From IMG/VR virus record IMGVR_UViG_3300014293_000001, positions 1 through 64,000 of that record: a stretch of 64,000 nucleotides of DNA; one strand, written 5' to 3'. Below the pieces are notes generated by a model that was not told the origin of the DNA, ran no database searches, and saw only the letters and a list, made by a program, of their open reading frames with translations. The DNA is from a virus. Shown here piece by piece: positions 3,744-51,311 of this stretch. Each line of letters begins with the position of its first letter. Positions within the stretch are counted from its first letter, which is position 1. Both the position numbers and the translations under genes were made by a program.

Positions 3744-3771
3744 GGGGAGGGCGACCTCCCCTATTTTTTTT
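3744..3771 (+). terminator. intrinsic terminator after capsid gene
   Basis: GGGGAGG-GCGA-CCTCCCC stem-loop (3744-3761) followed by TA and a T-run. Confidence 0.85.
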
Positions 3772-3781
3772 AGGAGGTACT

Positions 3782-4659: not shown

Positions 4660-4668
4660 GGAGCCGTA

Positions 4669-5136: not shown

Positions 5137-5144
5137 GAGGTAAT

Positions 5145-5609
5145 ATGACAGTAAAAGAATTAATGACTAAAGCGGCACTAAGAAACCGCTTATCTGATAG
5201 TATTGAAAGCGGGTACGATGATGATGAATTGATTGCATACTTTAATGATGCGATTGATTTTGTATGGCATGTACTTATCGACAATAATTATTATGAGGTT
5301 ATCGGCGATATTACTTTTACACAAAAGGAAACACCAACACCGTCAGATTGGTACAAAGCAACCAACCAAGCACCATTACTTTTAAAGAACAAAGGTAAAA
5401 CAATTGAATGTTATGGTGAATTGCCTTATACAGTTCGATACTATCGCAGACCTCAATTTGTATCTACAGTTAATGATGAATTACCGTGGACAAACGAAGC
5501 ATTCTCTAATATTCTTGCTCAATTGACTATCGTATTCGCAATGAGTAATCATGAATTCGATATGACAGTAGAACAAGACTTTGTGGAGGCTATTATTAAT
5601 TATTTATAG
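5145..5609 (+). CDS. neck/adaptor-region paralog 3 of 3
   Basis: TAGGAGG SD. Carries GYDDDELIAYFNDAIDFV and VRYYRRPQFVSTVNDELPW motifs shared with its neighbours. Confidence 0.7.
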   Translation: MTVKELMTKAALRNRLSDSIESGYDDDELIAYFNDAIDFVWHVLIDNNYYEVIGDITFTQKETPTPSDWYKATNQAPLLLKNKGKTIECYGELPYTVRYYRRPQFVSTVNDELPWTNEAFSNILAQLTIVFAMSNHEFDMTVEQDFVEAIINYL

Positions 5610-5617
5610 GAGGATAA

Positions 5618-7198
5618 ATGGATAAACAAAATAACCTGCCATCTACCATAAATGGTGATGGTCGTAAATTTATCTCCTTGCTTAAAGGGTATCTAAATGA
5701 TATTAAGGTTGCTTTAGAGGACCAAATTAGCGAAGTTACTAAAGTATGGAATGGTATAGCTGATAATCCAGACACCATTACAGAACAAATACAGAATATT
5801 ACCATTGATGAAAAGAGTATTAATGGTAATGTATCATTAATGTTACGTTGGGATTCAGTACCAATTAAACAATATGCTGGTGTCAGTATTGATGTTAAAG
5901 TCGGTGACTTTCATGATACTCCTGATATGTTTGCCAATAAAGAAGTATTCCAACATTATGACACTGGCAAAACTAACACCTTTACATTGCCAAATGCAGA
6001 AATTGGCAAAAAATATGAATTCGTCATTCGTGGTAGGGATATTCGTAATGCTTTGTCAGAAAAAGTCCATGCACCTGTAACATATTACTATGTTTCTGAA
6101 GAGACCCATATCCCTAAATCACCATACGAATTTACAGTAATTTTTGATAAACGTGGTGCTTATTGGTCATGGAAACAGCATCCACAAAATGACTACCAAT
6201 GGACAGAATTACGTTTAGATGCAAATGTAGGAGAAGAGCACAATCGGTTAGACTTAACTACTGGTTGGAATTCCACCTCTTTACCATATGCACGTGTCGG
6301 TACAGCCTACTTGTATAATAAAGGTGTTGGGAATTCTTATTCTGCTCCAACTACTTTAAATTATTCTAAATCTGTTCCTGCCGCTCCAACTCACATTAAT
6401 ATTACACCTGTATTTGAAGGTCTATATATCACATTTGCAAGCATTCCAGAAGATTGTATAGGAGCTAAAATTTATATTAATAATGAAGAACATTTTGTGG
6501 CTGATAACAAATTTAGTTTTAATTGTTCTACTGGTAACTACACTATCAAGATTTGCTACACTGATGTTTTTGGTAATGGCGAGTTATCTAGTCCAGTAAC
6601 AACAAGTACAGTGGAAGAAATTCCACCAGATGCTGTACACATTACAGACAGAACAGTATTTGATAACGGCATCATTGTCGCAAAATATATTGGTGATAAA
6701 GCAGTTGTTGGTACAAAGATTGCAGATGGTGCTATTACTACTGATAAGTTAGTAGCAAATGCTATTACAGGTGATAAAATTGCAGCTAATGCTATTACTT
6801 CAGATAAAATTAAAACTGGAGAAATTACAGCAGAGAAGATAGCTACTAATACTATAACAGGTGATAAACTTAAAGCCAATACAATTACAGGCGATAAAAT
6901 TATTACAGGTAGCATTTCTGGCGATAAAATTGCAGCGAACAGTATTAGCGGTGATAAAATTCAAGCTGGTTCTATTGATACAAATAAACTTGCAGCTGGT
7001 GCAGTCAATGCAGATAAAATTCAAGCAGGTTCAATTTCTGGTGACAAATTAAATGTCAATAGTTTGTCTAGTATTAGTGCTAAGATTGGCACGTTGAGAA
7101 CAGCTACTACTGGTGCTAGAACAGAAATTAGAGACAACTTAATTGAGGTGTATGATGAAAATAACAGATTACGTGTTAGAGTGGGGGTGTGGAATTGA
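5618..7198 (+). CDS. tail fibre/spike protein with decapeptide repeats
   Basis: TAGGAGG SD; 526 aa. The C-terminal third consists of 11 tandem 10-aa repeats of the form A-N-A-I-T-G-D-K-I-x. Confidence 0.7.
   Translation: MDKQNNLPSTINGDGRKFISLLKGYLNDIKVALEDQISEVTKVWNGIADNPDTITEQIQNITIDEKSINGNVSLMLRWDSVPIKQYAGVSIDVKVGDFHDTPDMFANKEVFQHYDTGKTNTFTLPNAEIGKKYEFVIRGRDIRNALSEKVHAPVTYYYVSEETHIPKSPYEFTVIFDKRGAYWSWKQHPQNDYQWTELRLDANVGEEHNRLDLTTGWNSTSLPYARVGTAYLYNKGVGNSYSAPTTLNYSKSVPAAPTHINITPVFEGLYITFASIPEDCIGAKIYINNEEHFVADNKFSFNCSTGNYTIKICYTDVFGNGELSSPVTTSTVEEIPPDAVHITDRTVFDNGIIVAKYIGDKAVVGTKIADGAITTDKLVANAITGDKIAANAITSDKIKTGEITAEKIATNTITGDKLKANTITGDKIITGSISGDKIAANSISGDKIQAGSIDTNKLAAGAVNADKIQAGSISGDKLNVNSLSSISAKIGTLRTATTGARTEIRDNLIEVYDENNRLRVRVGVWN
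6722..7054 (+). repeat. 11 tandem 30-nt (decapeptide) coding repeats inside the fibre gene
   Basis: Translation reads ADGAITTDKLV, ANAITGDKIA, ANAITSDKIK, TGEITAEKIA, TNTITGDKLK, ANTITGDKII, TGSISGDKIA, ANSISGDKIQ, AGSIDTNKLA, AGAVNADKIQ, AGSISGDKLN. Confidence 0.9.
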
Positions 7199-7575
7199 GT
7201 TGGTTTAAAAAAATTAAAGAGAAGGTAAAATCTTTCTTTAAAAAGGAGGACAAAGTGCCAGCTGGTATTGAGATTTATAATGAACAAAATAAATTAATTT
7301 TAGGAACTAATTATCGTGGTTTACGATTATTAAAAATGTTAAAACTGCAAGATTTGAAAGGTTCTACATCAGTTACGCCTAAAAATGGCGAAGAAATTCT
7401 TGCATTTGCTGTATTACATTGCTCTGACACAGTATGGCATTATAGTGATATTAAATATTGTAATGTCAATGGGCATACCATCTCGTGGGAATTTTCCGAG
7501 GGAAATGCATCATCTGCATTTGGTTCCAGTGAAAATGGACGTATTAATGTTTATATATTTGGGAGGGCAAAATAA
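7189..7575 (+). CDS. hypothetical tail-module protein
   Basis: 128 aa overlapping the upstream stop. The start is uncertain: GTG 7189 or TTG 7195 after GTGGGGG. Confidence 0.55.
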   Translation: MELSWFKKIKEKVKSFFKKEDKVPAGIEIYNEQNKLILGTNYRGLRLLKMLKLQDLKGSTSVTPKNGEEILAFAVLHCSDTVWHYSDIKYCNVNGHTISWEFSEGNASSAFGSSENGRINVYIFGRAK

Positions 7576-17518: not shown

Positions 17519-20500
17519 ATGGCAAGATGGACAGACGGATTAGCTAATAGAAATGCTCAAGCCGCATATGAAAATAACTTAGCCCAATATGGTTCTGACT
17601 ATATGGGTAAAGCCAGTTATGATGGTATTCTTGACGAGACGTTAGGCAACTTTAGTGCTGGTATTGATAGACTAGGTTCTGATATGTTAGGGTCCGTTGC
17701 ATACGGACTTTCTAACATTGATGGAGATACAGCACAATGGCTTAGAGGTAAGGCTGAAAACGAAGCAAACTTTTATGCTAATCTAGCTGGCTATCGTAGC
17801 ACAATGGGCGATACTGCTGATTTACCTTGGAATGAGCAAGTAATCAATCCTCATTACTGGGCTGCTCAAATTGGTAATTTTGCAGGTAATACGGTACCAC
17901 AAATCGGTATGGCTGTTCGTACAGCAGGTTTTGCAAGTGGTGCGATGAATGTTGGTAAAATTGGTGGTTTACTAGGTAGAGCTGGTTTAAGTGAAGGTTT
18001 AGCTGGTAGCGTTGCAAATGGTTTAGGTAAAGTAGCTAAATATGGTACAGAAATCGCAACAGGTGCTGGTTTAGAAAACCTACAAAATGCTGGTTCTATT
18101 TATAACGATTACCGTAATGCTGGTTATAATACCGATGTAGCAGGTAGTGCATTTGAACAATCTTTAAACCAAGGTTGGGCACCTGCCGCATTAGATTATA
18201 TTGCAGACCGTGCTGGTGTTTCTGGTAAAGCTGGTATGCTTGCTAGTGCGTTCGCTAAAGATGGCGGTAAACTTATTGCTAAAAGTATGCTTGGTAATGC
18301 TGTCAATAGTTCACTAGAAGGTTATACAGAAGCATGGCAACAAGCGATTGAAGGTCGTATCAAAGGGCAAGAAGGTTATGACCAAGTATCTATGTTAGAC
18401 CCATCTACATGGACTGATGATATGTGGTCTGCCGCTAAAGACGCATTTAACGTATCTATGGCTGTTGGCGGTATGGGTAGTGCTGCTAGACATATTGGTA
18501 ATAAGGCATTAAATAAAGCAGATGAAATGGCTGATTTAACAGCAGATAATGATATTATCAATGATGGTACTCAACCACCTATCGCAGTAAATGATACTCC
18601 AATGGCTGATACGGGTATTGATATTGCATCTGATGTTACTGAAACTCCTGATATTATCAACGAAACTCCACTTGGTAATGTAGAAATTGATGATATTTCT
18701 AACGCCTCCTATTCTCCTATGATGGAAGAAAGTGGTTTTGCGACTGCTGTCAATAAAGCACTTAATAATCGTCCACCTGAAGATTATGCAGAAATGATGA
18801 ATAGACTTCAAGACGAACGTGCAAATATTATGGAGTTGCATGGTGATAAACCTGCTGACCAACTTTCTCCACGTATGTTTGAAGAAAACTTCGTAAACGC
18901 TGGATTAGAACCAAAATCTGCACGATTAGTATCTCGTAATCTTTACAATGATATGGTGGGTGCAAATAATACTGAGACGATTGAAGATGCAAGTGAAGTA
19001 CCACAAGAAGAAAGTTTAGCAGATAAAGCTGATAGACTTGGTGTAACATTGACAGATGCTGAACGTGCTAATTTAGAACGTGAAAACCCAGATAAAACAT
19101 CTGTTCGTGAAGTCGAACGCCGTGTTGCAGATACTGAAAAGAATAACGCATATAACGACCAAATTCGTGCTATAGCAGAACATCGTAAAGCGTATAATGA
19201 AGACAGATATGCTAATTCTCCTAATAAAACATTCTTTGAAAACGAATATAAAGATAACCCATATAAAGCACAAGACGCAGCTTACCGTGTACATAATGCA
19301 ATGGAAGCACGTAAAAAAGATGCTAAAAGTTCTGATATTAAAAAACAAGAGCAATCTAAAAATGTTCGTAACTACTTAGCTAAAGCTGGTATTAAACCTT
19401 CTAATGGTTATTCTACAGAAGAACTTAAAAATATCGCAGAATACGCTAAACATATGGATAACCAAGAGCGTACTCCTCAAAACGTGCAAAGCTATATTCA
19501 AAACCGTGATATGGCTAAACAGGTTGAGAATGTAATTAGTACTTTACCTCCTAAAGACAGTCCTGACTATTTACCAGCTAAACGACATTTAGCACAACAA
19601 TTAAGTAAACACTTAGTAACAATGGGTGTTAATGGTTTTGATGTAACTGGTCCACAATTTGAGAATGTACGTAAAATCTTATCTACGCAAGAACGACGTA
19701 TGTTGCAAGATAATATTGATGAAGCTAAACGTGCTAAAGAAGAAACACGTAGAGCAAATTCACAATTAGCTGAACGTAAACCACAAGATACACAAAAGTT
19801 TGTTAATAATAAACAAGTAGCTGTATCTGAAGGTAACTTCGCCGCCGCTGATAAAGAAATGGCTGATTATCTTAACAGCGATAGAGTAACCAATGAAGGC
19901 TTACTAGAAATTCAGCGAAGATTATCTCACACTAGTAGAGAACATAAACCTAAATTTAAACAAACACTTGATGCTTTGCAATACCGTGCACAAAAAGGAG
20001 ATATTCTTGGTGGCAAGGTTGGTAATTATAATGTAATGGTTCGTAAACCTAATTCCGAATGGAAAGCACGTGAGGTAAAGGATTACACCCGAACTATTGA
20101 CCATGATAATCCTACAGGTGAAAATAGAGAACCTATTGTTACTCCATACGAAGAACGTAAAGCGTTAAATCCTGCACAACCTAAAGAAAAGAAAAAGAAA
20201 ACTCAGTCCAAATCTCGTACAGTAGACGTAACTACAGAAGAACAAAAAGCTAAAATGCGTGATATAGACCAATTAGCGAAATTAAAATCTACATTACAAC
20301 AGTTTGGTCAAATGAATGAAGAAACAGCTAAACAGGCTATTGATTCTGTTCCTATGGAAACGAAGTATGGTAAAGAACAAAAACAAAAATATAAAGAATA
20401 TGTTCTTCGTCAAGCTAACGAAGATACTGGTGACATTGATTTAAGTGATGATATTCAACAACCAGAAGACGTTATATCTAAACATAAAGATACACTAGAA

Positions 20501-23500
20501 AGTATCTCCAAAGATATTAAATATATTAAAGACAATCCTCATATGTCTTTACGTGAATACCAACGTATTTATAATGGTATCGTTGCAAAGCGTAATCATT
20601 TAGTTCGTCAATCTCCTGAGTTTGTAGATAACTGGAATAATATTTTTAATAAAGTACCTAAATATAAGGTACCTAATGTAACTTCATTAATGCAAGCTAT
20701 CCGTAAAGGGGAAGTTAAAATTCCTCAAACAATACTAAGTTCATTCATTGATAAACCAAATCATTTTGATGAAAACTTAAAAGCATGGTTTACTAAAGAT
20801 TATAATTTAACTGACGTAGAAAATACACGTGATTTTGATAAAACACGTAATGCTATCATTTTGCAAGCAATGCAAAAAGCTTCTACACGTATCAAAACTA
20901 TTGGTATGCAACAGCTTATGGAAGAGCTAGACGACAAGAACGGCAACCATTTATTAGGTCGTTTTGTAAACCGTGCTATTCAAATGTACCCTGTTTACAG
21001 AAATAAAGATAAATATAGAAGTTTATCTGGTAAAGTCGCTGCTAAACGATTATTTCCAGAAGGTGCATCTGATTTTAGTAGTATGAATAGCCCTCTAGCT
21101 AAACGTGTATATGCTGATGTTAAGAAAATTGTACCAGCTGTAATGTCTGACAGAATTGCTAAGAATGGCAAAATTCAAGAAGAACGAATGAAAGATGCCA
21201 AAACTAAGAACCAAATTCAATCTGCATTGCGTTTAGGTGATTATGTAGATGGTGTATTAAATGCACATATTCCTGATGAGCAAGGCGGTACATATGATAC
21301 TAACATCAAGATGAACATTAAACTTGACGACGACTTTAATGTAGAAGCACCAATTCCAGAAGATGTTGATATTGAAGCATTTAAAGAAGCATTGGACTAT
21401 TACCTATCTGATATGGGTATTATCGCTAACGACGAAATGGTCGAAGATGGTAATACAGTTAAATTTGAGGCATCTTATATTCCAGAAACTGTATTTAACA
21501 ATAGTGCTTATATCGCACAAGCCGCGTGGAATACATTAGGTGGTGTAGTTAGACAACACGGTCATGTAATCTTAGATAATGCAAATCTTGACGAAGCAGG
21601 TCGTAAAGCGTTACAAACAGAAGCTAAGCAAGCATGGAAACAAGCTGGGTTTGAACTTATTTCTAACGATGATACATATACTTTAGTACCTATTGAAGAA
21701 ATTCAAAAATCTATTACAGGTAATAAACAAGTATCAAATAATAAAAATACTAAATTCCATGAACCCGGTCCTATTGAAATGGATATTTTACGTAAAGTTG
21801 CCGATAGAAGCGAAGGTCTTGGAAAATTGTCAAATGACGAAATGAAAACAATCTTACAATCTATTATGCACCAACTTGACGGAGACCGTGAAGCGTATGT
21901 CGCTGTATTACAATATCTCAAAAATCACCCTGATTTAGAGATATATGTTGCAGATAGAATGTTTGACATGGACTCTCTTGATTATACATTTGATGGTTTC
22001 TATATGCCGTCAACCAAGCGATTGTATATGACAAAAGATGCTATTATACCTGATGGAGATGTATTCTTGCACGAATTATTGCACAGTGCAACACACTACA
22101 CTGGCGTAAATGAAATTGTACCAAATGTAAATGACGCACTTAGAACATTAAGAAAGGAATTGGAATATGATGAAGGACTTGCAGGACAAATATACAGAGC
22201 TTCTGAACCAAGTGAAATACTTACATTTAGCGGAGAGCACTCAAAGAAAGATGTTGAAAACGCTCTTCAAAATGCCGCAGGCAACATTGGAAGTGCAGCA
22301 ATCACTATGCGTGATGCTCTCTCTAATACAAGTGAAGGCAAAACAATTCCAGATTTCCGCAAAGCTAGAAGTGGGAAAGATAATATCCCAGTTGGAGAAA
22401 ATGCACAGCGAGAAAGAAGTAGACGACTTATTCAAAGAGCTAATGCCATTCTACAAGAACAAAAAATAACACCAGAACATTTCGCTAAAATAGCACTGAT
22501 GGCTGATATGAAAGCGGACGAACCGTTTGAATATGCTGATGAACTTATGGACACTCCAGTTCCAGCTGAAGTAAAAATACTTGTAGCGGCGATGACTATC
22601 CCTGAAATACCACCTAAATTGGTTAATAACTATGATGGTTATAAGTTTATGAATGAAATGATGTCGTATGGTGGCTCTAAATTATTCTCTACTCACACAG
22701 TTAAAGAACATTTACGAAATGCATTGAGTGATATGAGACAAGTAGGTAAACAAAGTGAGCTCACCAAATTAAATAGAGTAAACAATAAACCAGCAGATGT
22801 TTTAAATGCGATGAAACAAAAGATAGATTACGCTATTAGAGCTAACGATAGAATTGACCAAGCAGAACAAAAATTACTTGCTGATATTATGGAACATGGT
22901 GGTGGTATCATTGAACGTATTAACCCATCAGAAGATGGTATATCTTTTGCATGGTTCCGTAAAATGCTACAATCTCCATCATCTTTAGCACGTAAACTTG
23001 TCCCAGAATTAAAACCTATTATCCAAGCAGCTTATGTTGCCGCACGTACAGCACGATATAAGCGTAGAGAATATATCGCAGACCTTGATAAATATTTCTT
23101 ATCCTTAGACGAAAAAGCTGGCGAAGACAAACAAATTAATAAACTCTTTGATGATATTGATAAACGTGGTCGTGAATTTGCACAACCAGTTGCAGTCCGC
23201 ATCAATGGAGAATTAAAATACGCTATTATTAAACCTAACGATGAATTCACAGAATTTGGTTTAGGCGATGATAAACGTATGCGTAAATTTGTTAAAGCGG
23301 AACGTGAAAAGGGTAACCATGTTTACGTTGGTATGTCTAAAGATGTATACCAAGTTATTTCTAGTAAAGATAATATTGCCGCATACAAAGATAAAGCAAA
23401 TGCTAATAAAGTAGCGATTGATATGTCTAAAGCGTATGCTAAGCAATTAGGTTATAGCGATAACGTATGGAATGCATATGTTGGTGTGCGTAATACACTT

Positions 23501-25921
23501 AACAAAATTCATAAAGACGTAAATGATAACCAAGTTGCACGTGGTAAAGAACCGTCTGCTGATTTATGGGGTTATATCCCTCGTGAACATAAACGATATG
23601 GTGTATATCGTGTTGAAGTTAAATATGACCCAGAAATAAAAGATTATCGAAAAAAATATACAGCATTAACATCTTTTGATACAGAACATCAAGCTAACCG
23701 ATTTGTTGATAGCTTAACTCCTGAAAAGGGTATAGCATATGCAACAATTCATCGTGATAGATACCAAGCAGATGCTTCTCAATCTTATGAAGGTTACTAT
23801 TCCAATCTTACAGAAGAAGAAGAAAACTTAAATAAAGTATATGAAAAAATGTCTACTGAAGATGCAGCAGCATTATTCAATAAAGTACAAGGTAATTATA
23901 CAGAGACTAAGAAATTCATTGACCATTTCTTAAAAGGTAAAGATAAGTCTATGACTTATGATGATTTTCAAAACTTAATTAATAACAAAGAACGAATGAA
24001 AGAAATCGGTCTTGACCCTCGTAAATTACAAAAAGAAGTAGCACAAGCTAACTTTGAAAAATTATTGAAGAAAGATAAAGATGGTCTTTTAACACATGAA
24101 AATGTGAGTGCATATTTATACCGTAGTTCTGGGGCTCAAATGTGGAATAAACATAATCTTAAACGTGCTGGTGTTATGGGTCATAACGAAGACCACACAG
24201 CAGCTATTTACCATTATGCTATGACACAAGCTAAGTATCAAGGTAATGCTCCATTCTTAGACTTTGCTACACGCTATTACGAAGAAGCTTTTGGTGAAAA
24301 CTATGAAAAGCAATATGGTCGTAATGGTACTGGTGCTAAAAATGCACGACAAGATATTGTCCATGATTATATCCAACGTGTAATTGGTGCACCAAATAAA
24401 GTAGATAAAGTCCTCAATCGTATTGGTCGTGAGTTACCATATATTGGTAATTTCATGGTTAAATACATGGGTGATAATTGGGTAACTAAATTACTCAACC
24501 GTAATATGCAAGCAATGGCTGTATTTAAACTAGGTGTATTCAGACCTACAGCCGCTATCGCACAGTTTGGTACATTAGCCAACGTAGCTGCTTTAACAGG
24601 GTTTACTCCTGAATTACGTTACGCAATGAAAGAAGCTGGTCGTGGTGGTAAAGATGGTAAATACGGCAAGTTATTTGATGACCTTGAAGTATATGAAGAA
24701 AATGCAAACCAAGCATCTGAATTCTTTAGCGATACACTAGACTATCGTAAATTAAAGGTTCATGGTATTAATATTGGTAAAGCATTTGATTTATCTATGA
24801 AAGGTTTCATGAAAGCCGACTCTTATACACGCAAAGTAGCCGCTATTGTAGCATACGAAAAATACTGTAAAGACCACAATATGGACCCTATGCAACCAAA
24901 TAAAAATGACCCAGATGGTTATCGTAAAGCTATGGAATACGCAAAAGATTTTGTTGTAAAAACAAACTTTGACTATAGTGATATTGATAGCCCTAGATTG
25001 TTTACTCAATTTGGTACATTAGGTAAAACATTATTACAATTTAAAAAGTTCGGTGTTAAAGAAGCTGAATTCTTATTCACTGCATTTAAACGTAATGATG
25101 GTTCTATTGACTATAAAGGTTTAGGCAGATTTATGAGCATCACAATGGGTATGGCTGGTTTCATGGGCTTACCATTTATGGGTGCTGGTGATGATATGCT
25201 TAAATGGTTGACAGGTAAGGGATTATCTGACCGTGCTAAAGACCTTGCTTATGAATGGGCTGGTAACGACCAAACTAAACAAAAAATTGCCTTACTTGCT
25301 ATGATGGGTGCACCATCTATGTTCGGTGTAGACTTTAGCCGTAATGTAGGTTTTGGTGATTTAACTCCAAGTAATGGTAGTGATTTGTTAGGTCCTACAT
25401 TATCTACATGGGGCTCTCTTGCTGACGTAGCTAGAAATAGCCATGATTGGAGAGATGTAGTTGCTGGTATTGGTCACTCATTATCACCACAACTTGGTAA
25501 CGTATACCAAGCGTATACAGGCAATATGCGTGACTGGAAAAATGCTGAAGATAAAGGTGCTTATACACCTGCTGAACGCATGATGAAGTTAATGGGCTTC
25601 AGACCTGCACGTGAATCTGTAGAAAATGATTTAGCTTATAGATTGACTATGGCAAATCAAGAGTTAAAAGAAGGTAAAAAACAAGCAATCAATGATTTCT
25701 TGAGAGACCCTTCTGATGAAAACCGTAAACGCCTTAAAGATTTTGGTGTTACTGGTAAACAACTTAAAGATGCTAGAGACTTAAAACAAATGTCTGCTAT
25801 TGACAAGGCTAATAAATACCTACCTAAGAAATCTTCTGTAGAAGCTGATAAGGTTAAGGAACAAGCTAATGTTTATAATACATTTGTTGACGGTATGTAT
25901 GATGGATTGGAGGAAGAATAA
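17519..25921 (+). CDS. giant (2800 aa) virion/ejected protein with central zincin HExxH motif
   Basis: AAAGGAG SD and a single uninterrupted ORF. It has Gly/Ala-rich hydrophobic stretches near both ends and HELLH at nt 22070-22084 (aa 1518-1522). It lies between the lysozyme and endolysin genes. Confidence 0.85.
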   Translation: MARWTDGLANRNAQAAYENNLAQYGSDYMGKASYDGILDETLGNFSAGIDRLGSDMLGSVAYGLSNIDGDTAQWLRGKAENEANFYANLAGYRSTMGDTADLPWNEQVINPHYWAAQIGNFAGNTVPQIGMAVRTAGFASGAMNVGKIGGLLGRAGLSEGLAGSVANGLGKVAKYGTEIATGAGLENLQNAGSIYNDYRNAGYNTDVAGSAFEQSLNQGWAPAALDYIADRAGVSGKAGMLASAFAKDGGKLIAKSMLGNAVNSSLEGYTEAWQQAIEGRIKGQEGYDQVSMLDPSTWTDDMWSAAKDAFNVSMAVGGMGSAARHIGNKALNKADEMADLTADNDIINDGTQPPIAVNDTPMADTGIDIASDVTETPDIINETPLGNVEIDDISNASYSPMMEESGFATAVNKALNNRPPEDYAEMMNRLQDERANIMELHGDKPADQLSPRMFEENFVNAGLEPKSARLVSRNLYNDMVGANNTETIEDASEVPQEESLADKADRLGVTLTDAERANLERENPDKTSVREVERRVADTEKNNAYNDQIRAIAEHRKAYNEDRYANSPNKTFFENEYKDNPYKAQDAAYRVHNAMEARKKDAKSSDIKKQEQSKNVRNYLAKAGIKPSNGYSTEELKNIAEYAKHMDNQERTPQNVQSYIQNRDMAKQVENVISTLPPKDSPDYLPAKRHLAQQLSKHLVTMGVNGFDVTGPQFENVRKILSTQERRMLQDNIDEAKRAKEETRRANSQLAERKPQDTQKFVNNKQVAVSEGNFAAADKEMADYLNSDRVTNEGLLEIQRRLSHTSREHKPKFKQTLDALQYRAQKGDILGGKVGNYNVMVRKPNSEWKAREVKDYTRTIDHDNPTGENREPIVTPYEERKALNPAQPKEKKKKTQSKSRTVDVTTEEQKAKMRDIDQLAKLKSTLQQFGQMNEETAKQAIDSVPMETKYGKEQKQKYKEYVLRQANEDTGDIDLSDDIQQPEDVISKHKDTLESISKDIKYIKDNPHMSLREYQRIYNGIVAKRNHLVRQSPEFVDNWNNIFNKVPKYKVPNVTSLMQAIRKGEVKIPQTILSSFIDKPNHFDENLKAWFTKDYNLTDVENTRDFDKTRNAIILQAMQKASTRIKTIGMQQLMEELDDKNGNHLLGRFVNRAIQMYPVYRNKDKYRSLSGKVAAKRLFPEGASDFSSMNSPLAKRVYADVKKIVPAVMSDRIAKNGKIQEERMKDAKTKNQIQSALRLGDYVDGVLNAHIPDEQGGTYDTNIKMNIKLDDDFNVEAPIPEDVDIEAFKEALDYYLSDMGIIANDEMVEDGNTVKFEASYIPETVFNNSAYIAQAAWNTLGGVVRQHGHVILDNANLDEAGRKALQTEAKQAWKQAGFELISNDDTYTLVPIEEIQKSITGNKQVSNNKNTKFHEPGPIEMDILRKVADRSEGLGKLSNDEMKTILQSIMHQLDGDREAYVAVLQYLKNHPDLEIYVADRMFDMDSLDYTFDGFYMPSTKRLYMTKDAIIPDGDVFLHELLHSATHYTGVNEIVPNVNDALRTLRKELEYDEGLAGQIYRASEPSEILTFSGEHSKKDVENALQNAAGNIGSAAITMRDALSNTSEGKTIPDFRKARSGKDNIPVGENAQRERSRRLIQRANAILQEQKITPEHFAKIALMADMKADEPFEYADELMDTPVPAEVKILVAAMTIPEIPPKLVNNYDGYKFMNEMMSYGGSKLFSTHTVKEHLRNALSDMRQVGKQSELTKLNRVNNKPADVLNAMKQKIDYAIRANDRIDQAEQKLLADIMEHGGGIIERINPSEDGISFAWFRKMLQSPSSLARKLVPELKPIIQAAYVAARTARYKRREYIADLDKYFLSLDEKAGEDKQINKLFDDIDKRGREFAQPVAVRINGELKYAIIKPNDEFTEFGLGDDKRMRKFVKAEREKGNHVYVGMSKDVYQVISSKDNIAAYKDKANANKVAIDMSKAYAKQLGYSDNVWNAYVGVRNTLNKIHKDVNDNQVARGKEPSADLWGYIPREHKRYGVYRVEVKYDPEIKDYRKKYTALTSFDTEHQANRFVDSLTPEKGIAYATIHRDRYQADASQSYEGYYSNLTEEEENLNKVYEKMSTEDAAALFNKVQGNYTETKKFIDHFLKGKDKSMTYDDFQNLINNKERMKEIGLDPRKLQKEVAQANFEKLLKKDKDGLLTHENVSAYLYRSSGAQMWNKHNLKRAGVMGHNEDHTAAIYHYAMTQAKYQGNAPFLDFATRYYEEAFGENYEKQYGRNGTGAKNARQDIVHDYIQRVIGAPNKVDKVLNRIGRELPYIGNFMVKYMGDNWVTKLLNRNMQAMAVFKLGVFRPTAAIAQFGTLANVAALTGFTPELRYAMKEAGRGGKDGKYGKLFDDLEVYEENANQASEFFSDTLDYRKLKVHGINIGKAFDLSMKGFMKADSYTRKVAAIVAYEKYCKDHNMDPMQPNKNDPDGYRKAMEYAKDFVVKTNFDYSDIDSPRLFTQFGTLGKTLLQFKKFGVKEAEFLFTAFKRNDGSIDYKGLGRFMSITMGMAGFMGLPFMGAGDDMLKWLTGKGLSDRAKDLAYEWAGNDQTKQKIALLAMMGAPSMFGVDFSRNVGFGDLTPSNGSDLLGPTLSTWGSLADVARNSHDWRDVVAGIGHSLSPQLGNVYQAYTGNMRDWKNAEDKGAYTPAERMMKLMGFRPARESVENDLAYRLTMANQELKEGKKQAINDFLRDPSDENRKRLKDFGVTGKQLKDARDLKQMSAIDKANKYLPKKSSVEADKVKEQANVYNTFVDGMYDGLEEE

Positions 25922-26454: not shown

Positions 26455-27004
26455 AATTTATATTATCCTTATAATTGCGTTATTTGCGTTCTGTGGGCTG
26501 TTTTATATATTCCATAGGCAAACACACGTGGAACAATCTACACCCACCTTACAGCCTAAAATAATGAACGAGAAGGCTACTGTAGGAACAAAGACTACTG
26601 TATCTTATATCCCAAAAGAACGAGAACTGGTTTACGTGAATAATGTGCCTACATATGTGAAAGAAGATACCGATGTAGAAGCTAATATTGATAAGCCTGC
26701 TGTTACAGTTAAAGTAAATGGCAAGAAACAAAAGTTTGATTTACAACAAAATGAAACTCAAAAGTTTGAAGATGGTAAGGTGGTATTAGACCAAAAATCT
26801 ACAGTAGAGTTTGATATTAAAGTACCAGAACGCCATGAATTAAATGTATACGGTCAAGAAGAATTCCGTGCAGGTAAATTTCACAGTCAAGTTGGTATTG
26901 ATAAACAAAATGGCAAATTAGTATACGGTGCTAAATACGATATTACAGACAAAGAACCTGTATATTATGTACGCTATAATCTAGTAAAAATGTACACAAA
27001 TTAA
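26363..27004 (+). CDS. membrane-anchored lysis-accessory candidate (start uncertain)
   Basis: The frame is open from TTG 26363, overlapping the endolysin by 92 nt. It carries an N-terminal anchor (IYIILIIALFAFCGLFYIF) and a beta-rich ectodomain. No SD is seen for any candidate start. Confidence 0.5.
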   Translation: MRYHKKMETEVLLFVEKLSGIITILKNVKIKIYIILIIALFAFCGLFYIFHRQTHVEQSTPTLQPKIMNEKATVGTKTTVSYIPKERELVYVNNVPTYVKEDTDVEANIDKPAVTVKVNGKKQKFDLQQNETQKFEDGKVVLDQKSTVEFDIKVPERHELNVYGQEEFRAGKFHSQVGIDKQNGKLVYGAKYDITDKEPVYYVRYNLVKMYTN

Positions 27005-27008
27005 AAGC

Positions 27009-27037
27009 TTGACAAATTGATTTTTATATGTTACTAT
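27009..27037 (+). promoter_or_regulatory. sigma70-type promoter
   Basis: TTGACA (27009-14), 17-nt spacer, TACTAT (27032-37). It shares the TTGACAAATT -35 context with the promoter at 28289. Confidence 0.55.
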
Positions 27038-27083
27038 TACTATAGACATAATTATTTCCTCCTCAGCGTGGTCAGGGGTGGGC

Positions 27084-27113
27084 TTGACGGCTCGCCCTCG
27101 GCTGTGCTACAAT
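27084..27113 (+). promoter_or_regulatory. sigma70-type promoter with extended -10
   Basis: TTGACG (27084-89), 18-nt spacer, TGcTACAAT (27105-13). It sits in a GC-rich island. Confidence 0.65.
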
Positions 27114-27152
27114 CCTCACAAACCCAGCAACGGTGCGGTGTCAGCAAAGGTG

Positions 27153-27181
27153 TTGACAGCTGACAGCTAGGGTGCTACAAT
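27153..27181 (+). promoter_or_regulatory. consensus sigma70-type promoter with extended -10
   Basis: TTGACA (27153-58), 17-nt spacer, TGcTACAAT (27173-81). Confidence 0.75.
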
Positions 27182-27230
27182 GTGAGTAGTGGTGGAGCCA
27201 CGGAACTTGCTCTACCGAAAGGAGAAAACT

Positions 27231-27425
27231 ATGGCAAAAAGAAATTTTGGTGTTTCGATGTGTGGTCGTATTGAGTATACTCGAAGAAAGCCAAGAAAAG
27301 CGTATTGTAAAAATTGTATACATTGTTTATTGACTGAACATGGTACAGAAATGTACTGTAAAAAGTATAAAAGATTTAAGTCAATAAGACAATCAAAAAA
27401 GCCATCTTGTTTAGTAGCAAGATAG
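27231..27425 (+). CDS. small basic Cys-rich (zinc-ribbon-like) protein
   Basis: ATG 27231 lies 7 nt after an AAAGGAG SD; the track start 27189 is an upstream GTG. 64 aa with 18 K/R and 6 Cys, including C-x2-C-x2-C. Confidence 0.6.
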   Translation: MAKRNFGVSMCGRIEYTRRKPRKAYCKNCIHCLLTEHGTEMYCKKYKRFKSIRQSKKPSCLVAR

Positions 27426-28262
27426 CACTCTATATGAGCAGAGGTGGACCTGTAATGTGTACGGGCGGACAACGGTCTTGAAAACCAATATAGAAGCCGA
27501 CAGGGACTGACATATAGACTAAATATATCAGTTGATATCATATCGAGATAGTCGTTGACACTGCAAGCCGACTTTAAAAAATAACAGGGGGCGGACTCAC
27601 CATTCCTCAATAGGGGCTGTTGGGCACGCCCTTTTGTCGTGCACTTTCCTAGATTTTGTCCCGTCGTAGATGGCAGTCGAAACAAACTCTTGTGAGTGGT
27701 AGATAAAGCTACACCTAGGCTACCTTGGTATTAACCATGAAGTTTCGATAGTATACCAACAGTATACGTTGCTCCCATGTATATGGGGGCAATACCTCGG
27801 CACTACCTTGGGCAGTCATCAAGTATAGAATACAGTAGATATTCACTAAGATATATATAATACAATCAGCTACGAAGTAGCTACAAACGAAGTGCGTAGT
27901 AACAGATATAGAGTAGATGCTCAACATTACTACCAATAAGTGATACAGTTACTTGGTATTCATAACTGGTGCGTTCGCAGAATATCTTCACTAGCGTTCA
28001 GATATTGATTAGTTGATAATACACATAAAGAAAAGAAATTACGAACAGAAATGTTCCCTCTTGGTATTATCTACAACTACAGCAACTAACGATGTGAGTA
28101 ATTCACCTAGCGTAGCGGTTATACAGTATCAGTATTTTAGGTATTTAAAACACTACCACTTAAAGCGTAATAACATTACTACAACTTAGTATATAAAACA
28201 AAGAAGAATAGCATTACTCAGCGTAATATTGAATTACACTTCGTAATACGTTACACTTAATA
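27426..28262 (+). ncRNA. candidate long structured non-coding RNA or long 3' UTR
   Basis: About 840 nt with no SD-preceded ORF on either strand, in an otherwise tightly packed genome. It lies downstream of three promoters and ends at a strong terminator. Local hairpins are numerous, e.g. 27769-27792, 27868-27882, 27725-27759 and 27931-27958. Confidence 0.35.
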
Positions 28263-28286
28263 GACCCCTTTATGGGGTCCTTTTTT
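28263..28286 (+). terminator. intrinsic terminator
   Basis: GACCCC-TTTAT-GGGGTC followed by C and T6. Confidence 0.85.
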
Positions 28287-28288
28287 AT

Positions 28289-28317
28289 TTGACAAATTTA
28301 GTATAATACGATATACT
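28289..28317 (+). promoter_or_regulatory. sigma70-type promoter of the replication-module operon
   Basis: TTGACA (28289-94), 17-nt spacer, TATACT (28312-17). Confidence 0.65.
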
Positions 28318-28336
28318 ATATTAAAGGAGGTATAAT

Positions 28337-28513
28337 ATGTTAAGGGAAGAAACAATACGTATTATAGAAAGCTATCACCATGATTTAGGTAATCAAAGCT
28401 GGTTATCTACATATCTCAGTAACTGTAAAACTGGTGATAGTTTAGAAACTATTTCAAGTAGAGAATTAAGTTTAATATTAGCTTATATGGAAGATGATTA
28501 CGCAGATTTATAA
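28337..28513 (+). CDS. hypothetical small protein (58 aa; below the ORF-track cutoff)
   Basis: ATG lies 7 nt after AAAGGAGG. Reads MLREETIRIIESYHHDLGNQSWLSTYLSNCKTGDSLETISSRELSLILAYMEDDYADL, with TAA at 28511-13. Confidence 0.6.
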   Translation: MLREETIRIIESYHHDLGNQSWLSTYLSNCKTGDSLETISSRELSLILAYMEDDYADL

Positions 28514-39307: not shown

Positions 39308-39756
39308 TAATAGCACCAGAAGAAAATATAGTAAGATTATTACGACAAATGAAAGACCAAGGTTTTACTGATTTTGTTATATTAGATGGAAATCTCCACA
39401 TTTTTGGCGACGGTATTGATGGAAAGATTATGTATTTGCCTAAAACAATCATGACTACCTTATGTACATTTTTATTGTCGCATAGACCACCGTATTCTAT
39501 ATCTAAAATTATTGCGGATATTGAACATGATTATGTTGGTCCAGATAAAGGATTTCAGTGGTTTGATTGTGTTCATAAACCAAATAAGCTTCGTTTCCGT
39601 GAAAGTAAACTTGGCGAAATGGTATTTACATTAAATGGTATTGTACGTTGTAACAAAGGCGATAAAATCATCATTGGTGTTAATGGTGAGCAATACCCAT
39701 GTGATAAAGAAATTTTTAAATTATTATATGACGAGGTGGAAAATGCAAGTAATTAA
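39304..39756 (+). CDS. hypothetical protein
   Basis: ATGA overlap; 150 aa. Confidence 0.6.
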   Translation: MIIAPEENIVRLLRQMKDQGFTDFVILDGNLHIFGDGIDGKIMYLPKTIMTTLCTFLLSHRPPYSISKIIADIEHDYVGPDKGFQWFDCVHKPNKLRFRESKLGEMVFTLNGIVRCNKGDKIIIGVNGEQYPCDKEIFKLLYDEVENASN

Positions 39757-42700
39757 ACGTGATGGAACAACCGAAGAATATTTAGGTCAAAAAATTGAGC
39801 GTGCAGTAGAAAAGGCAATGTTTGCAACATATCTTGTTATGGAGCCAACTATGTTAGCAGAACCATTCCAAGTGTCGTTATATGTATGGGATATTATTAA
39901 AGACGCAAAAGAACCTATATCTATTAAACAATTAGAAAATATTATTTTTCGTAAATTAACTGATGATGGTTATACTGATGCCGCTGTTAATTATATTGAA
40001 TACAAAACAAAACGTGATATGGAACGTAGTAAACATAAATTAACTCAAGAATTCTTGGACAAATATCCTGATTACCCTGATTGTATGGACGAGTTAGCTA
40101 AATTTGTGTATATTCGTACATATTCTCGTTGGTTGCCAGATAAAAATCGTCGTGAAACATGGAAAGAAACGTGTGCTCGTGCTATTAATGGTAATTGTTC
40201 TTATTTGCCTACGGCAGACGGTGAACCAGAAGCATTGTTTGATAATATGTTTAATTTACGACAACGTATTTCTGGTCGTATGTTATGGATGGGTGGTACT
40301 GAAGCATTGGAAAAAACACCATTAGCGGCGTATAATTGTTCTGGTATTACGATGGATAGTATTCATGCATTTCATGAATTATTTTATTTGTTAATGGTAG
40401 GTACTGGTGTTGGTTGTCGTGTATTGAAAGAAGATATTGCAAAATTACCTCAGTTTGATACAACTAAAAAGTTATATCACGTTAAAACTCCTGTTCCTAA
40501 AGGTACAACATTAGAGCATACAAAAGTATCTAACTATGGTCATAGTGTTATCATTACAGTAGGTGATAGTAAAGAAGGTTGGTGTGAAGCATTAACTGCA
40601 TATCTTACTACTATGACGGATAATGTAACTACATCTATTTCTATTGATTACAGTTATATTAGACCTCAAGGTGCACCACTTAAAACATTCGGTGGTTATG
40701 CAAGTGGCTATGCATCTTTAAAAGAAATGTTTGAAAAGCTTCATAAAATTATTGTCAAAGAAAGCACCGATGGTAAATTACGTCCATTGAATGTTGCCGA
40801 TATGTGTAATATTGTTGGGCAAAATGTAGTTGCAGGTGGTACACGCAGAACAGCAGAACTTATCCTATTTAGTCCTGATGATGAAGAAATGCTACACGCT
40901 AAGGAAAACCTAGACCCAGAACATTACTTCCGTTATATGTCTAATAACTCTATGTATTTAGAAGAAAAGCCTTCTAAAGAAGGTTTACGTAAGTTAATGA
41001 TGTCTATTAAAGAAACAGGAGAACCGGGTTTTATTAATGTTGCTTCTGCTAAAAAGCGTCGTGAAGATTTTGATATATGTAATCCATGTGTAACTGGTAC
41101 TACAGAAATCTTAACTAAAGAGTATGGTTATATTCAAATTAAAGACGTTGTTGACGAAGATGTAACAGTATGGAATGGTTATGATTGGAGCCCTGTAACA
41201 CCTAGAGTAACTGGTTATGACCAACCTATGATGAGAATTCAATTTTCTAATGGTAATGAATTAGAATGTACTAATTACCATAAATTTGTGATGCAAGATG
41301 GTTCTCGCATTGAAGCTCGTGAATTATGTATTGGCGACAAATTAGAAAGATGGGAATTCCCTGTAGTTGAAGCAGATGAACGTGCTATGGGTATCTATTA
41401 TGCAGAAGATTATGACCCATATATTCACGGATATTATGCTGGTGATGGTATACAAAATAAACCTTTGATTTACTTATATGGTGAAAAACGTAAATTAGTA
41501 GATGTATTCAGCAATTCATCTGGATGTACGATTAGTGAAGGGTTAGAACGTGATACAGTATTATTGCCTAAACAACTATCTAAATATCTTGTACCAGATG
41601 TTGGGGACGCAGTATATCATAGATTGCGTTACTTAGCTGGTCTACTTGATAGTACTGGATGCGTACATTTCAGTGAAGGCTCTGTTGCTATTCCATCTAT
41701 TGATAAAGAATTCCTTATTAAGATTTCTCGTCTGTTAAATACACTAGGTTGTCATGCTTCTATTCATTTAATGCATGAAGGTGGTTATCGTAAAGTGCCA
41801 GTTGAAGGTGGTCCTGATGATAGTCAAGTATATTATTGCCGACCTACATATAAATTAATTATTCCCGCTTGGTATGTTAGACGTTTAATTAATTTGGGTT
41901 TGTCAACTCATTATATTCATTTAGATGCTTATCCAAATAGTAATGATAGCCAAGCTATTTATATCACATCTATTGAATATATTAGAAATTGTCCAACAGT
42001 ATATTGTTTTACTGAAAATAAAAATCATACTGGTATTTTTAATGGTGTTATGACTGGACAATGTGCTGAAATTTTATTACCATCTAAAGCAGTATGCAAC
42101 CTTACTAATATCAACGTATCTAAGTTTATTGATGAACGTGGTAATGTAATGATACCTCAGCTTAAAGAAGCATGTAAATTATCTGCTCGTGCTTGTTATC
42201 GTTTAACTGAACCTGAATTAGAATTAGAAGGTTGGAGTGATATTCACCATAGAGACCGTTTAATTGGTTGCTCTATTACAGGTTGGCAAGATGCTGTAGC
42301 TGGTAATTTAACGAAAGAAGAACAAGAAGCATTACTTGTATTAATGAAAATGTGGATTAACGATGCGGCTAATAAATACGCAGATGAAAACCATCGTCCT
42401 CACCCTGTATTGTATACAACAGTACAACCAGATGGTACAGGTGGATTAATTAGTAGTTGTTCTGCTGGTGTTCATTATAATCATGCTCCATATTATTTCA
42501 GACGTGTACGTATTTCAACCAATTCTCCATTATACCAAGCTGTTAAATATTTAGATGGCTGGCAAATTGATAATGAAGTTGGTCAAGGTGATGATGGTAA
42601 TACAAAAGTAATTACATTCCCTTGTAAATCTAAATCTACAATTACAAAATATAATGTATCAGCTATTGAACAATTAGAACAATATAAGATGATGCAAACA

Positions 42701-43012
42701 TGTTACGTGGACCATAATACATCAATTACTGTTACAGTAAAAGACAATGAATGGGACGATGTAATAGATTGGTTAGATAAAAATTGGGATTGTGTAGTAG
42801 GTATTTCATTCTTGTCTCTAAATCAAGATTACTATCCGTTAATGCCTTATGAAGAATGCACTAAAGAACAGTACTTAGAATTAAAATCTAAAATGTCTCC
42901 ACTTGACCCAGAATTAGTCAATAAATATGAATTTGAACTACAAACTGTAGGTAAAGATTTTGAAATTGATGAAAGTGGAGAATGTGAAGATGGTCATTGC
43001 CCAGTGCGGTAG
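39743..43012 (+). CDS. ribonucleotide reductase, class II-like (B12-dependent, RTPR-like), intein-containing
   Basis: ATG 39743 follows GAGGTGG; the track start 39635 is an upstream extension. N-terminal VIKRDG (ATP-cone-like). The finger-loop motif NP|C..AEI is split by an intein. C-terminal C-x4-C tail (CEDGHC). Confidence 0.75.
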   Translation: MQVIKRDGTTEEYLGQKIERAVEKAMFATYLVMEPTMLAEPFQVSLYVWDIIKDAKEPISIKQLENIIFRKLTDDGYTDAAVNYIEYKTKRDMERSKHKLTQEFLDKYPDYPDCMDELAKFVYIRTYSRWLPDKNRRETWKETCARAINGNCSYLPTADGEPEALFDNMFNLRQRISGRMLWMGGTEALEKTPLAAYNCSGITMDSIHAFHELFYLLMVGTGVGCRVLKEDIAKLPQFDTTKKLYHVKTPVPKGTTLEHTKVSNYGHSVIITVGDSKEGWCEALTAYLTTMTDNVTTSISIDYSYIRPQGAPLKTFGGYASGYASLKEMFEKLHKIIVKESTDGKLRPLNVADMCNIVGQNVVAGGTRRTAELILFSPDDEEMLHAKENLDPEHYFRYMSNNSMYLEEKPSKEGLRKLMMSIKETGEPGFINVASAKKRREDFDICNPCVTGTTEILTKEYGYIQIKDVVDEDVTVWNGYDWSPVTPRVTGYDQPMMRIQFSNGNELECTNYHKFVMQDGSRIEARELCIGDKLERWEFPVVEADERAMGIYYAEDYDPYIHGYYAGDGIQNKPLIYLYGEKRKLVDVFSNSSGCTISEGLERDTVLLPKQLSKYLVPDVGDAVYHRLRYLAGLLDSTGCVHFSEGSVAIPSIDKEFLIKISRLLNTLGCHASIHLMHEGGYRKVPVEGGPDDSQVYYCRPTYKLIIPAWYVRRLINLGLSTHYIHLDAYPNSNDSQAIYITSIEYIRNCPTVYCFTENKNHTGIFNGVMTGQCAEILLPSKAVCNLTNINVSKFIDERGNVMIPQLKEACKLSARACYRLTEPELELEGWSDIHHRDRLIGCSITGWQDAVAGNLTKEEQEALLVLMKMWINDAANKYADENHRPHPVLYTTVQPDGTGGLISSCSAGVHYNHAPYYFRRVRISTNSPLYQAVKYLDGWQIDNEVGQGDDGNTKVITFPCKSKSTITKYNVSAIEQLEQYKMMQTCYVDHNTSITVTVKDNEWDDVIDWLDKNWDCVVGISFLSLNQDYYPLMPYEECTKEQYLELKSKMSPLDPELVNKYEFELQTVGKDFEIDESGECEDGHCPVR
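41087..42061 (+). mobile_element. intein (325 aa) with LAGLIDADG homing-endonuclease domain
   Basis: Starts CVTGTTEIL directly after Asn-Pro. Contains TNYH (block B) and the LAGLIDADG-like motifs HGYYAGDG and YLAGLLDSTG. Ends VYCFTENKNHTGIFNGVMTGQ, followed by extein CAEI. Confidence 0.8.
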
Positions 43013-50116: not shown

Positions 50117-50126
50117 ATAACCTCCT

Positions 50127-50306: not shown

Positions 50307-50315
50307 GCTTCCTCC

Positions 50316-50507: not shown

Positions 50508-50517
50508 ATTCACCTCA

Positions 50518-51309: not shown

Positions 51310-51311
51310 AA

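Follow-up and report, generated by a model that had tools for sequence, protein, structure and literature searches.

EGFOA RNAs (Rfam RF02955; Weinberg et al. 2017, PMC5737381) form a family of unassigned function that is found in unusually long gene-free regions, and cryo-electron microscopy (cryo-EM) structures of isolated 115-120-nt cores appeared in 2026 (bioRxiv 10.64898/2026.07.01.735769). So far the family amounts to the Rfam model and these core structures, with no function, partner or expression context. Here we analyse an EGFOA locus of a phage in the first 64,000 nt of IMG/VR record IMGVR_UViG_3300014293_000001 (the whole of this stretch is called the window below), where positions 27009-28286 of the plus strand form a unit with lysis genes on its 5' side and the replication region on its 3' side. 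A preliminary description had taken the stretch without an open reading frame (ORF) in this unit for a structured phage RNA behind stacked promoters and ahead of a terminator, and covariation and strand preference bear this out: it specifies a conserved, structured, plus-strand noncoding RNA with EGFOA as its core. On balance we favour the reading that the unit produces an immediate-early, very highly transcribed, self-associating noncoding RNA, which would probably act as a ribonucleoprotein. The EGFOA core itself is already known; new here are the extended architecture and a candidate partner, along with the way the promoters are arranged, the conservation of the genomic position and a connection to a cryo-EM construct.

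Compared with the family as described, the window RNA shares the full-length match, the conserved nucleotides, the outer helix, two internal hairpins, the pseudoknot and the long gene-free setting. It differs in lacking the model's first hairpin and in having a covarying hairpin inserted ahead of the closing helix; its core, moreover, lies inside a larger conserved RNA, between a 5' domain of six helices (217 nt) and two 3' hairpins. A small protein gene dedicated to the unit, predicted to be co-transcribed, and three stacked promoters come in addition, and none of these additions is in the family description that we compared. The cryo-EM construct EGFOA_Vei_C1A6 belongs to the same family, has the same conserved core and occupies the same genomic position, between lysis genes and DnaE. 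However, its structure was solved on the 115-nt core alone with the flanking domains left off, and in its Veillonella lineage there is a single promoter, the small protein is absent and DnaE has no terminator ahead of it.

GOLLD and ROOL are also large phage-borne noncoding RNAs without an assigned function; both form RNA-only homo-oligomers, and GOLLD too has a conserved and a variable part (Nature 2025, PMC12286853). In contrast to these, the window has no sequence or structure match to either RNA, lacks the tRNA genes that are their frequent neighbours and has a smaller conserved core, and the EGFOA-family oligomer is an open trimer or dimer rather than a cage. The OLE ribonucleoprotein (PMC12286853) combines a large structured RNA with small Oap partners encoded next to it, and the window RNA likewise has a neighbour that is for now a candidate partner only, although OLE is chromosomal, belongs to extremophilic Firmicutes, has membrane-associated partners and shares no RNA or protein homology with the window.

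For the EGFOA family the locus gives a testable context, namely a defined transcription unit, promoters that should together be extremely strong, covarying extra domains and a co-inherited candidate protein, and it places EGFOA at the head of the replication region throughout a lineage of ~65-kb human-associated phages. The trimer-forming RNA used for cryo-EM comes from this same phage lineage, and since in nature it appears to be part of a much longer transcript, the particle formed there may differ from the solved one. A ribonucleoprotein, if that idea is true, would open a route into the function of the self-assembling 'ornate' phage RNAs, and would be the first such assembly among them to have its partner and timing assigned.

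The EGFOA core and the fold around it

An Rfam scan of the whole window returned a single match, EGFOA at 27643-27749, which spans model positions 1-108 of 108 and scores 72.3 bits against a cut-off of 37.7 (E = 4.7e-11); the core is an EGFOA RNA. The conserved nucleotides of the family, CCNAG, CCGUCNUAG and (G/A)UAAAGCUA(G/C)ACCUNGG, are all present within 27648-27719 and invariant in 15 lineage sequences, the window copy carrying both CCGUCNUAG and UAAAGCUACACCUNGG together with CCNAG. The closing 8-bp helix around two hairpins is present as well, with the helices 95-100% paired and compensatory changes in each. Of the model's first 5' hairpin only 'AU' is left in this lineage, and because 72.3 bits are reached without it we read this hairpin as variable rather than defining and let membership rest on the score. 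The pseudoknot pairs CCTAG (27648-27652) with CTAGG (27715-27719), its middle pair covarying (C-G in 9 sequences, U-A in 6) and the other four pairs being invariant. EGFOA was found at the same offset in 11 of 11 relatives scanned, and in more distant relatives.

The preliminary description had suggested that the RNA belongs with GOLLD and ROOL, or else that it is new. Membership in the first class fails, with models of GOLLD, ROOL, OLE, raiA and HEARO giving no match at gathering score across the 64-kb window, nor any in 26900-28400 when filters were permissive and E <= 10 was allowed. The permissive Rfam scan of 26900-28400, which included group I/II introns and riboswitches, found no family other than EGFOA at E <= 0.01, and the 64-kb window contains no tRNA or tmRNA gene. 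As the core is a catalogued family the RNA is not wholly new either, and what is new lies in the architecture beyond the Rfam model. The parts of the conserved fold are these:

27426-27642, plus strand: upstream RNA domain of 217 nt with six helices, lineage-specific, traced by covariation and outside all Rfam models
27643-27749, plus strand: EGFOA RNA core (RF02955), found by the covariance model, its helices and pseudoknot counted in the alignment
27751-27767, plus strand: 3' hairpin GTATAC/GTATAC, with compensatory changes
27769-27792, plus strand: 3' hairpin TTGCTCCCAT/ATGGGGGCAA, with compensatory changes
27792-27798, plus strand: motif ATACCTC, 3' of the preceding hairpin

Relatives came from a search with the small protein, which found 13 IMG/VR contigs of ~66 kb, and from a search with a motif of the 5' part of EGFOA, which added 27 metagenome loci, mostly on ~65-kb contigs; short pattern scans of genome and viral collections gave mostly chance matches, which were filtered by a second motif. 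We sorted the loci into lineage types A to E and a more distant type named after locus L194. In an alignment of 15 sequences from four lineage types, RNAalifold gave 79 pairs for the whole of 27425-27801, 31 of them compensatory. Counted separately, the 5' domain has 35 pairs (21 compensatory), with 93.7% of cells paired against 31-48% in slid controls and 0 of 500 shuffles reaching the observed values, and the EGFOA core with its pseudoknot, inserted hairpin and two 3' hairpins has 41 pairs (15 compensatory), with 96.6% paired against 34-43% when slid. G-U cells outnumber A-C cells (126:11 and 21:1), and the consensus fold is better on the plus strand (79 pairs, 31 compensatory) than on the minus strand (67 and 21), from which we conclude that the structure belongs to the plus-strand transcript. 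Conservation of sequence and structure, the absence of which the preliminary description had named as counting against a structured RNA, is therefore found in the relatives together with compensatory changes.

Among the individual helices proposed earlier, the hairpins at 27769-27792 and 27868-27882 hold up through compensatory changes. The proposed pairing of TTGGTAT with ATACCAA over 27725-27759 does not, covariation backing instead GTATAC/GTATAC (27751-27767) and TGGT/ACCA (27726-27737), the latter being the inserted covarying hairpin that precedes the closing helix and lies outside the Rfam model. GGGCG...CGCCC with its TTTT (27589-27635) is part of a covarying helix, and its T-run pairs with upstream bases; it is not a terminator. 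The idea of one ornate RNA of ~840 nt goes too far, in that strong evidence for structure covers 27426-27798 (~375 nt) whereas the 3' 460 nt are replaceable and hold one compensatory hairpin.

In distant EGFOA loci (L194, L268 and Paenibacillus) this hairpin is found again with ACCTC behind it, and the conserved EGFOA fold probably extends 3' past the 108-nt Rfam model. An nhmmer profile of the 5' domain found nothing in EGFOA loci outside the lineage. We also observed an (A/U)ACCUC motif after the closing helix or 3' hairpin in L035, L047, L268 (a high-G+C soil variant) and L194, accompanied in several distant members by a YCCC...GGGGR hairpin.

The transcription unit, its small protein and its tail

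The signals that would make the unit one transcript, and the features between them that lie outside the conserved fold, are as follows:

27009-27037, plus strand: promoter P1, TTGACA-17-TGtTACTAT, from a consensus scan; hexamers kept in type A/B relatives
27084-27113, plus strand: promoter P2, TTGACG-18-TGcTACAAT, from the same scan; its -10 block GTGCTACAAT recurs exactly at P3 (repeat family D18)
27153-27181, plus strand: promoter P3, TTGACA-17-TGcTACAAT, 12 points, the best of the three and among the strongest sites of the window
27191-27216, plus strand: 5'-proximal hairpin GGTGGAGC/GCTCTACC, read from the sequence, directly 5' of the Shine-Dalgarno sequence GAAAGGAG (27217-27224)
27231-27425, plus strand: gene for a 64-aa basic protein (64 codons, 18 K/R, 6 Cys), preceded by GAAAGGAG
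27799-28262, plus strand: ORF-free tail of baseline G+C with hairpins, non-coding, a replaceable module
27868-27882, plus strand: tail hairpin AGCTAC-GAA-GTAGCT, with one within-type compensatory change (G-C to A-U)
27881-27899, plus strand: tail hairpin CTAC..GTAG
27931-27958, plus strand: tail hairpin TACCAA..TTGGTA, read from the sequence
28263-28286, plus strand: intrinsic terminator GACCCC-TTTAT-GGGGTC with T-run, found by scan (6-bp stem, 28263-28279)
28289-28317, plus strand: promoter of the downstream (replication) genes, TTGACA-17-TATACT, from the consensus scan; the first gene is 28337-28513

All three promoters ahead of the unit have an extended -10 TG. A loose criterion gave 20 sites against 18.7 expected, that is the chance level, whereas a strict one (at least 11 points, TG included) left 15 sites on both strands of the 64-kb window, 4 of which are P1, P2, P3 and the promoter at 28289-28317. 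With so few strict sites in 64 kb, three of them within 175 nt of one strand are far above chance. L020, a diverged relative, has three tandem promoters of its own at the same place but of unrelated sequence, and every lineage carries 1-3 strong extended -10 promoters of unrelated sequence ahead of the unit. The stack of three sigma70-type promoters within 175 bp that had been noted before is thus confirmed by the scan, the strict criterion and this relative. The early region of phage T7 begins with A1, A2 and A3, three tandem strong promoters for the host polymerase, and the similar arrangement here would imply massive immediate-early transcription, although those of T7 serve protein-coding genes, the anti-restriction gene 0.3 among them, and the main product in the window would be a noncoding RNA.

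Transcripts from P3 would start near 27188, just ahead of the 5'-proximal hairpin, which possibly serves as a 5' stabiliser and in relatives reads GGTAGAGC, a G-U pair having become A-U. Transcripts from P1 would begin with UUUCCUCCUCAG (27057-27066), a complement of the small gene's Shine-Dalgarno sequence at 27217-27224, and we speculate that promoter choice might on this account set how much protein is made per RNA.

The terminator, which as previously seen is followed at once by a fresh promoter (the scan found both), is the sole plus-strand terminator of the unit and is unchanged in 12 relatives. It closes the unit in types A and B and is missing in tail types A', C and D and in L194-type relatives, where the RNA runs directly into the next gene or DnaE. 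A sub-threshold match to preQ1-II at 28247-28337 spans this terminator, the next promoter and a Shine-Dalgarno sequence; at 27.4 bits against a cut-off of 47 (E = 0.046) we judged such a riboswitch to be a chance match and rejected it.

The placement of the unit between lysis genes and replication module, also part of the preliminary description, is confirmed by its neighbours, which are upstream an amidase-type endolysin and a 213-aa protein without assigned function, and downstream some small genes followed by a DnaE-type polymerase, a Rad52-like protein, a primase-helicase, a ribonucleotide reductase and ThyX. G+C is 47% in 27000-27300, 43-46% in 27400-27800 and 30-39% in 27800-28260, the last being the genome baseline, so that the G+C enrichment noted for the ORF-free stretch applies to 27400-27800 and not to its 3' half.

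The small ORF is a real coding gene. Against close relatives its synonymous to nonsynonymous codon differences are 9:1, 8:2 and 9:3, and the ORF with its Shine-Dalgarno sequence, 18 K/R and 6 Cys is as first described. Across types A-D the protein is 47-100% identical (47-61% for the versions in types B, C and D), and these four of the five lineage types conserve its basic character and four Cys residues, the CxxC at residues 26/29, Cys43 and Cys60, in the pattern CxxC-x13-C-x16/17-C, the first and third Cys of the window protein not being conserved. On this pattern the protein is probably zinc-binding. Searches of Pfam, PHROG(s), NCBIfam, PADLOC and the PDB gave no match, the best weak ones being zf-CXXC (E = 0.087) and an HVO_2753-like protein (E = 0.66), neither of which is significant. 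With 4 matches among 1.84 billion representative proteins and 5 clusters among 5.8 billion proteins, it is an orphan family.

Behind this gene the ORF-free gap (27426-28262) comprises 837 nt without a conserved frame and with 10-24 stops in every frame. Its longest plus-strand ORF (58 aa, 28013-28189) has stops or frameshifts in 7 of 12 relatives and codon-position counts of 11/15/14, hence no third-position bias; the mechanical minus-strand ORFs measure 73-157 aa, and the one of 157 aa is broken in L020. Independent gene callers run on five other assemblies called nothing in the gap. The ~840 nt without an ORF noted at the outset therefore stand, a conserved coding frame having been sought in relatives and none found.

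The tail (27799-28262) is probably part of the RNA but as a replaceable, lineage-specific module with weak direct support. Among its 94-97% identical relatives the window's tail shows a single compensatory pair, whereas two other tail types, 71% identical to each other, form a hairpin chain in which 16 of 71 pairs are compensatory. Read by eye, the tail in the window opens in the same order as other types, with a C-GAA-G hairpin, a second hairpin with a ACGAAGTG loop and an ACCAA/TTGGT hairpin; however, an nhmmer profile of the A'/C tails matched neither the window tail nor any EGFOA locus outside the lineage, so the window tail cannot be called homologous to the others by sequence, and a MAFFT alignment of the tail puts the first hairpin out of register. 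Tails of several relatives contain repeated hairpins with the constant loop ACGAAGT. Hairpins with cGNAg loops were considered as a hallmark of the window's tail and dropped, being not enriched there and having one good example.

The phage lineage, the Veillonella copy and EGFOA elsewhere

In ~40 related uncultured phage contigs of ~65 kb the unit occupies the same place, between the lysis genes and DnaE. Neither the unit nor the EGFOA core alone has DNA similarity to GenBank phages, no cultured phage with the unit was found, and the polymerase is at most ~32% identical to that of any deposited phage, which together indicate an uncultured lineage. In the three most diverged members of the first set 27217-27797 is 87-90% identical while the upstream protein gene is 71-79% identical and the promoter region and tail are unalignable, and the 217-nt 5' domain is 96-100% identical where the ORF is 80-88%, which argues that the noncoding RNA is under tighter constraint than neighbouring genes. 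Compared across relatives (L010-L022 and L259-L285 against 27005-28286), the unit is a mosaic of four modules that are exchanged independently, with the ORF and 5' domain forming one module, the EGFOA core and its 3' hairpins another, and the promoter region and the tail one each; recombination appears to use the conserved EGFOA core and the leader as its arms.

Locus L194 is a 63-kb viral contig from an isolate genome with the gene order of the window: genes for a giant protein of 2458 aa, an amidase-sized product and a 176-aa product are followed by a gap of 896 nt and then by DnaE. The gap holds a perfect TTGACA-17-TGgTATAAT promoter and EGFOA, with no small protein and no terminator before DnaE. 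The sequence of EGFOA_Vei_C1A6 (Table S3, bioRxiv 10.64898/2026.07.01.735769) is an exact match to L194 8980-9094, and the self-assembling RNA whose structure was solved is therefore the copy at the genomic position of the window EGFOA. This copy, from Veillonella seminalis ACS-216-V-Col6b, gave a 2.96 A homotrimer and a lower-resolution hexamer (bioRxiv 10.64898/2026.07.01.735769). Veillonella-type loci also lie inside very long contigs, one of 250 kb from the human gut (L263) and one of 208 kb (L275), which suggests that this branch may integrate or be temperate. An 11-codon mini-ORF upstream of the Veillonella-type EGFOA is not conserved between L263 and L275.

Outside these phages EGFOA is found in varied company. 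In six of six Bacillota loci (L035, L040, L047, L055, L078 and L113), a small sample that may be a single element family, a serine recombinase (Resolvase with or without Recombinase and Zn_ribbon_recom domains) is encoded 0.4-2.6 kb away, usually divergently and 375-560 nt from EGFOA. In L078 this recombinase abuts a chromosomal tRNA/rRNA methyltransferase gene, which places EGFOA at the edge of an integrated element, and in L113 positions 3323-7290 hold a small HTH protein, by eye excisionase-like, then EGFOA, Septu PtuA/PtuB (PADLOC E = 6.6e-111 and 1.4e-66) and the serine recombinase, an arrangement in which EGFOA immediately precedes an anti-phage defence pair. The Bacillota copies thus lie at the edge or in accessory regions of integrated elements, while in two other phage groups EGFOA stands beside terminase and portal genes and in Paenibacillus it is convergent with the next genes. 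Given these contexts we regard EGFOA as a mobile-element RNA at module boundaries and not as the leader of one particular gene.

Possible roles of the unit

We propose that the host sigma-70-type polymerase would read 27009-28286 as an immediate-early unit, its three tandem near-consensus promoters driving one transcript for the 64-aa protein and the long noncoding RNA. The functional heart would be 27426-27798, with the six-helix 5' domain, the pseudoknotted EGFOA core and the two 3' hairpins, and the RNA would work as a folded molecule rather than a message. By analogy with the Veillonella copy in vitro, the core may self-associate into a trimer or higher form, and the 64-aa protein would most likely bind the 5' domain to give an abundant early ribonucleoprotein. 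In favour of such a partnership, which the preliminary description had raised for an adjacent basic zinc-ribbon protein, across ~40 loci the ORF type is always paired with the same type of 5' domain (A-A, B-B, C-C, D-D, E-E) while the tail type reassorts freely; since protein and upstream RNA domain always travel together, a partnership is plausible, although the zinc ribbon in it comes from the Cys pattern and the L194-type relatives do without the protein. As the unit heads the early and replication region, and EGFOA elsewhere sits at module boundaries or in accessory regions, we would favour a trans-acting role in host takeover or conflict over a cis-regulatory one. A fuller version, which we offer tentatively and hold to be rather unlikely in its detail, is a dedicated ribonucleoprotein in which an ornate RNA of ~0.4-1 kb would multimerise via its EGFOA core and have its lineage-specific 5' domain clamped by the co-evolving 64-aa zinc protein; the particle would become very abundant within minutes of infection and act in trans, serving either to decoy or soak up a host defence or to scaffold the neighbouring replication machinery.

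Several observations weigh against a self-associating, abundant early ribonucleoprotein. The single transcript and its abundance are predicted solely from promoter and terminator consensus, and the missing terminator between RNA and replication genes in tail types C and D and in L194-type relatives fits a leader. Folded as a single sequence, the 5' domain has an unremarkable energy (z = -0.87), such energies being generally uninformative here. As to self-assembly, the window EGFOA is identical to the trimer-forming copy at 72 of 110 positions (~65%), and a second family member forms a dimer instead (bioRxiv 10.64898/2026.07.01.735769). As to the protein, its AlphaFold model (pLDDT 52.7) is too poor for a fold search, which leaves the Cys pattern as the sole ground for the 'zinc ribbon' label. 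Furthermore, L194-type relatives have EGFOA without the small protein, and in the equivalent of 27390-27425 the ORF of L019 has a frameshift near its 3' end and that of L021 an in-frame stop, both losing the last conserved Cys; these breaks could be assembly errors or real decay, and with the L194-type loci they argue that the protein is not essential to EGFOA function in general. Finally, the linkage of ORF and 5' domain could be a by-product of their adjacency between two conserved recombination arms.

The best surviving alternative, which we nevertheless consider unlikely, is that the RNA is a long structured cis-acting leader of the replication operon, or else the small gene's 3' untranslated region, and regulates the DnaE-containing genes downstream at the level of read-through, stability or translation, or in one variant that it mediates processive antitermination, the small basic protein binding nascent-RNA hairpins in the manner of lambda N at nut. 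It would explain why DnaE in L208 and the L194-type loci, like the next gene in L178, directly follows the RNA with neither a terminator between them nor a promoter of its own, and it agrees with the strong terminator behind the RNA in the window, as after lambda nut sites, with the arginine/lysine-rich small protein and with the constant-loop (ACGAAGT) hairpins repeated in several relatives' tails. However, in the window and in L020 the downstream genes have a strong promoter of their own, and L194-type phages lack the small protein. There is no homology to lambda N, and boxA/boxB consensus sequences are absent. Moreover EGFOA is no leader elsewhere, as its convergent orientation in Paenibacillus and its position beside terminase genes in other phages illustrate, and known antitermination RNAs are far simpler than a fold of 375 nt with many helices, a pseudoknot and the ability to oligomerise in vitro.

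An origin of replication activated by transcription, located in the tail (27799-28262) especially, is improbable. Here the transcript, or cGNAg-triloop hairpins in single-stranded DNA, would prime or open the origin, comparable to the T7 primary origin with its tandem promoters and to ColE1 RNA II; cGNAg-type loops make very stable DNA mini-hairpins and occur in some phage origins. The position directly upstream of DnaE, the Rad52-like protein and the primase-helicase suits this idea, as do the tandem promoters, the hairpins with C-GAA-G or C-GGA-G loops and the pairing on one strand, whose tolerance of G-T fits single-stranded DNA as well as RNA. Yet neither iterons nor arrays of direct repeats are present, A+T content in the tail does not exceed that of the rest of the genome, a skew inflection is lacking, and cGNAg hairpins, with their one good example, are not enriched in the window. 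An origin also leaves unexplained the best-conserved part, the G+C-rich pseudoknotted EGFOA, which elsewhere is found in settings unrelated to replication genes too.

Decayed coding sequence or hidden small genes with incidental structure are essentially excluded, for although ORFs of 58 aa (plus strand) and 73-157 aa (minus strand) can be read mechanically and the tail is swapped wholesale between relatives like an accessory gene, these frames are the broken, uncalled ones described above, the stretch has no GenBank phage DNA match and compensatory base-pair changes are abundant.

Three other features of the window are recorded here. Two further regions, 49960-52550 and 59660-61860 (~2.2-2.6 kb each), contain no ORF of at least 100 aa and no Rfam match at gathering score. 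Just before the endolysin, 17519-25921 encodes a 2800-aa protein with a HELLH metalloprotease-like motif, for which Pfam records no domain. The lineage conserves this protein, at a length of 2771 aa in relatives and of 2458 aa in the Veillonella contig. The ribonucleotide reductase at 39635-43012 (1125 aa) carries a LAGLIDADG-type insertion at residues 664-745, which is probably an intein or homing endonuclease.

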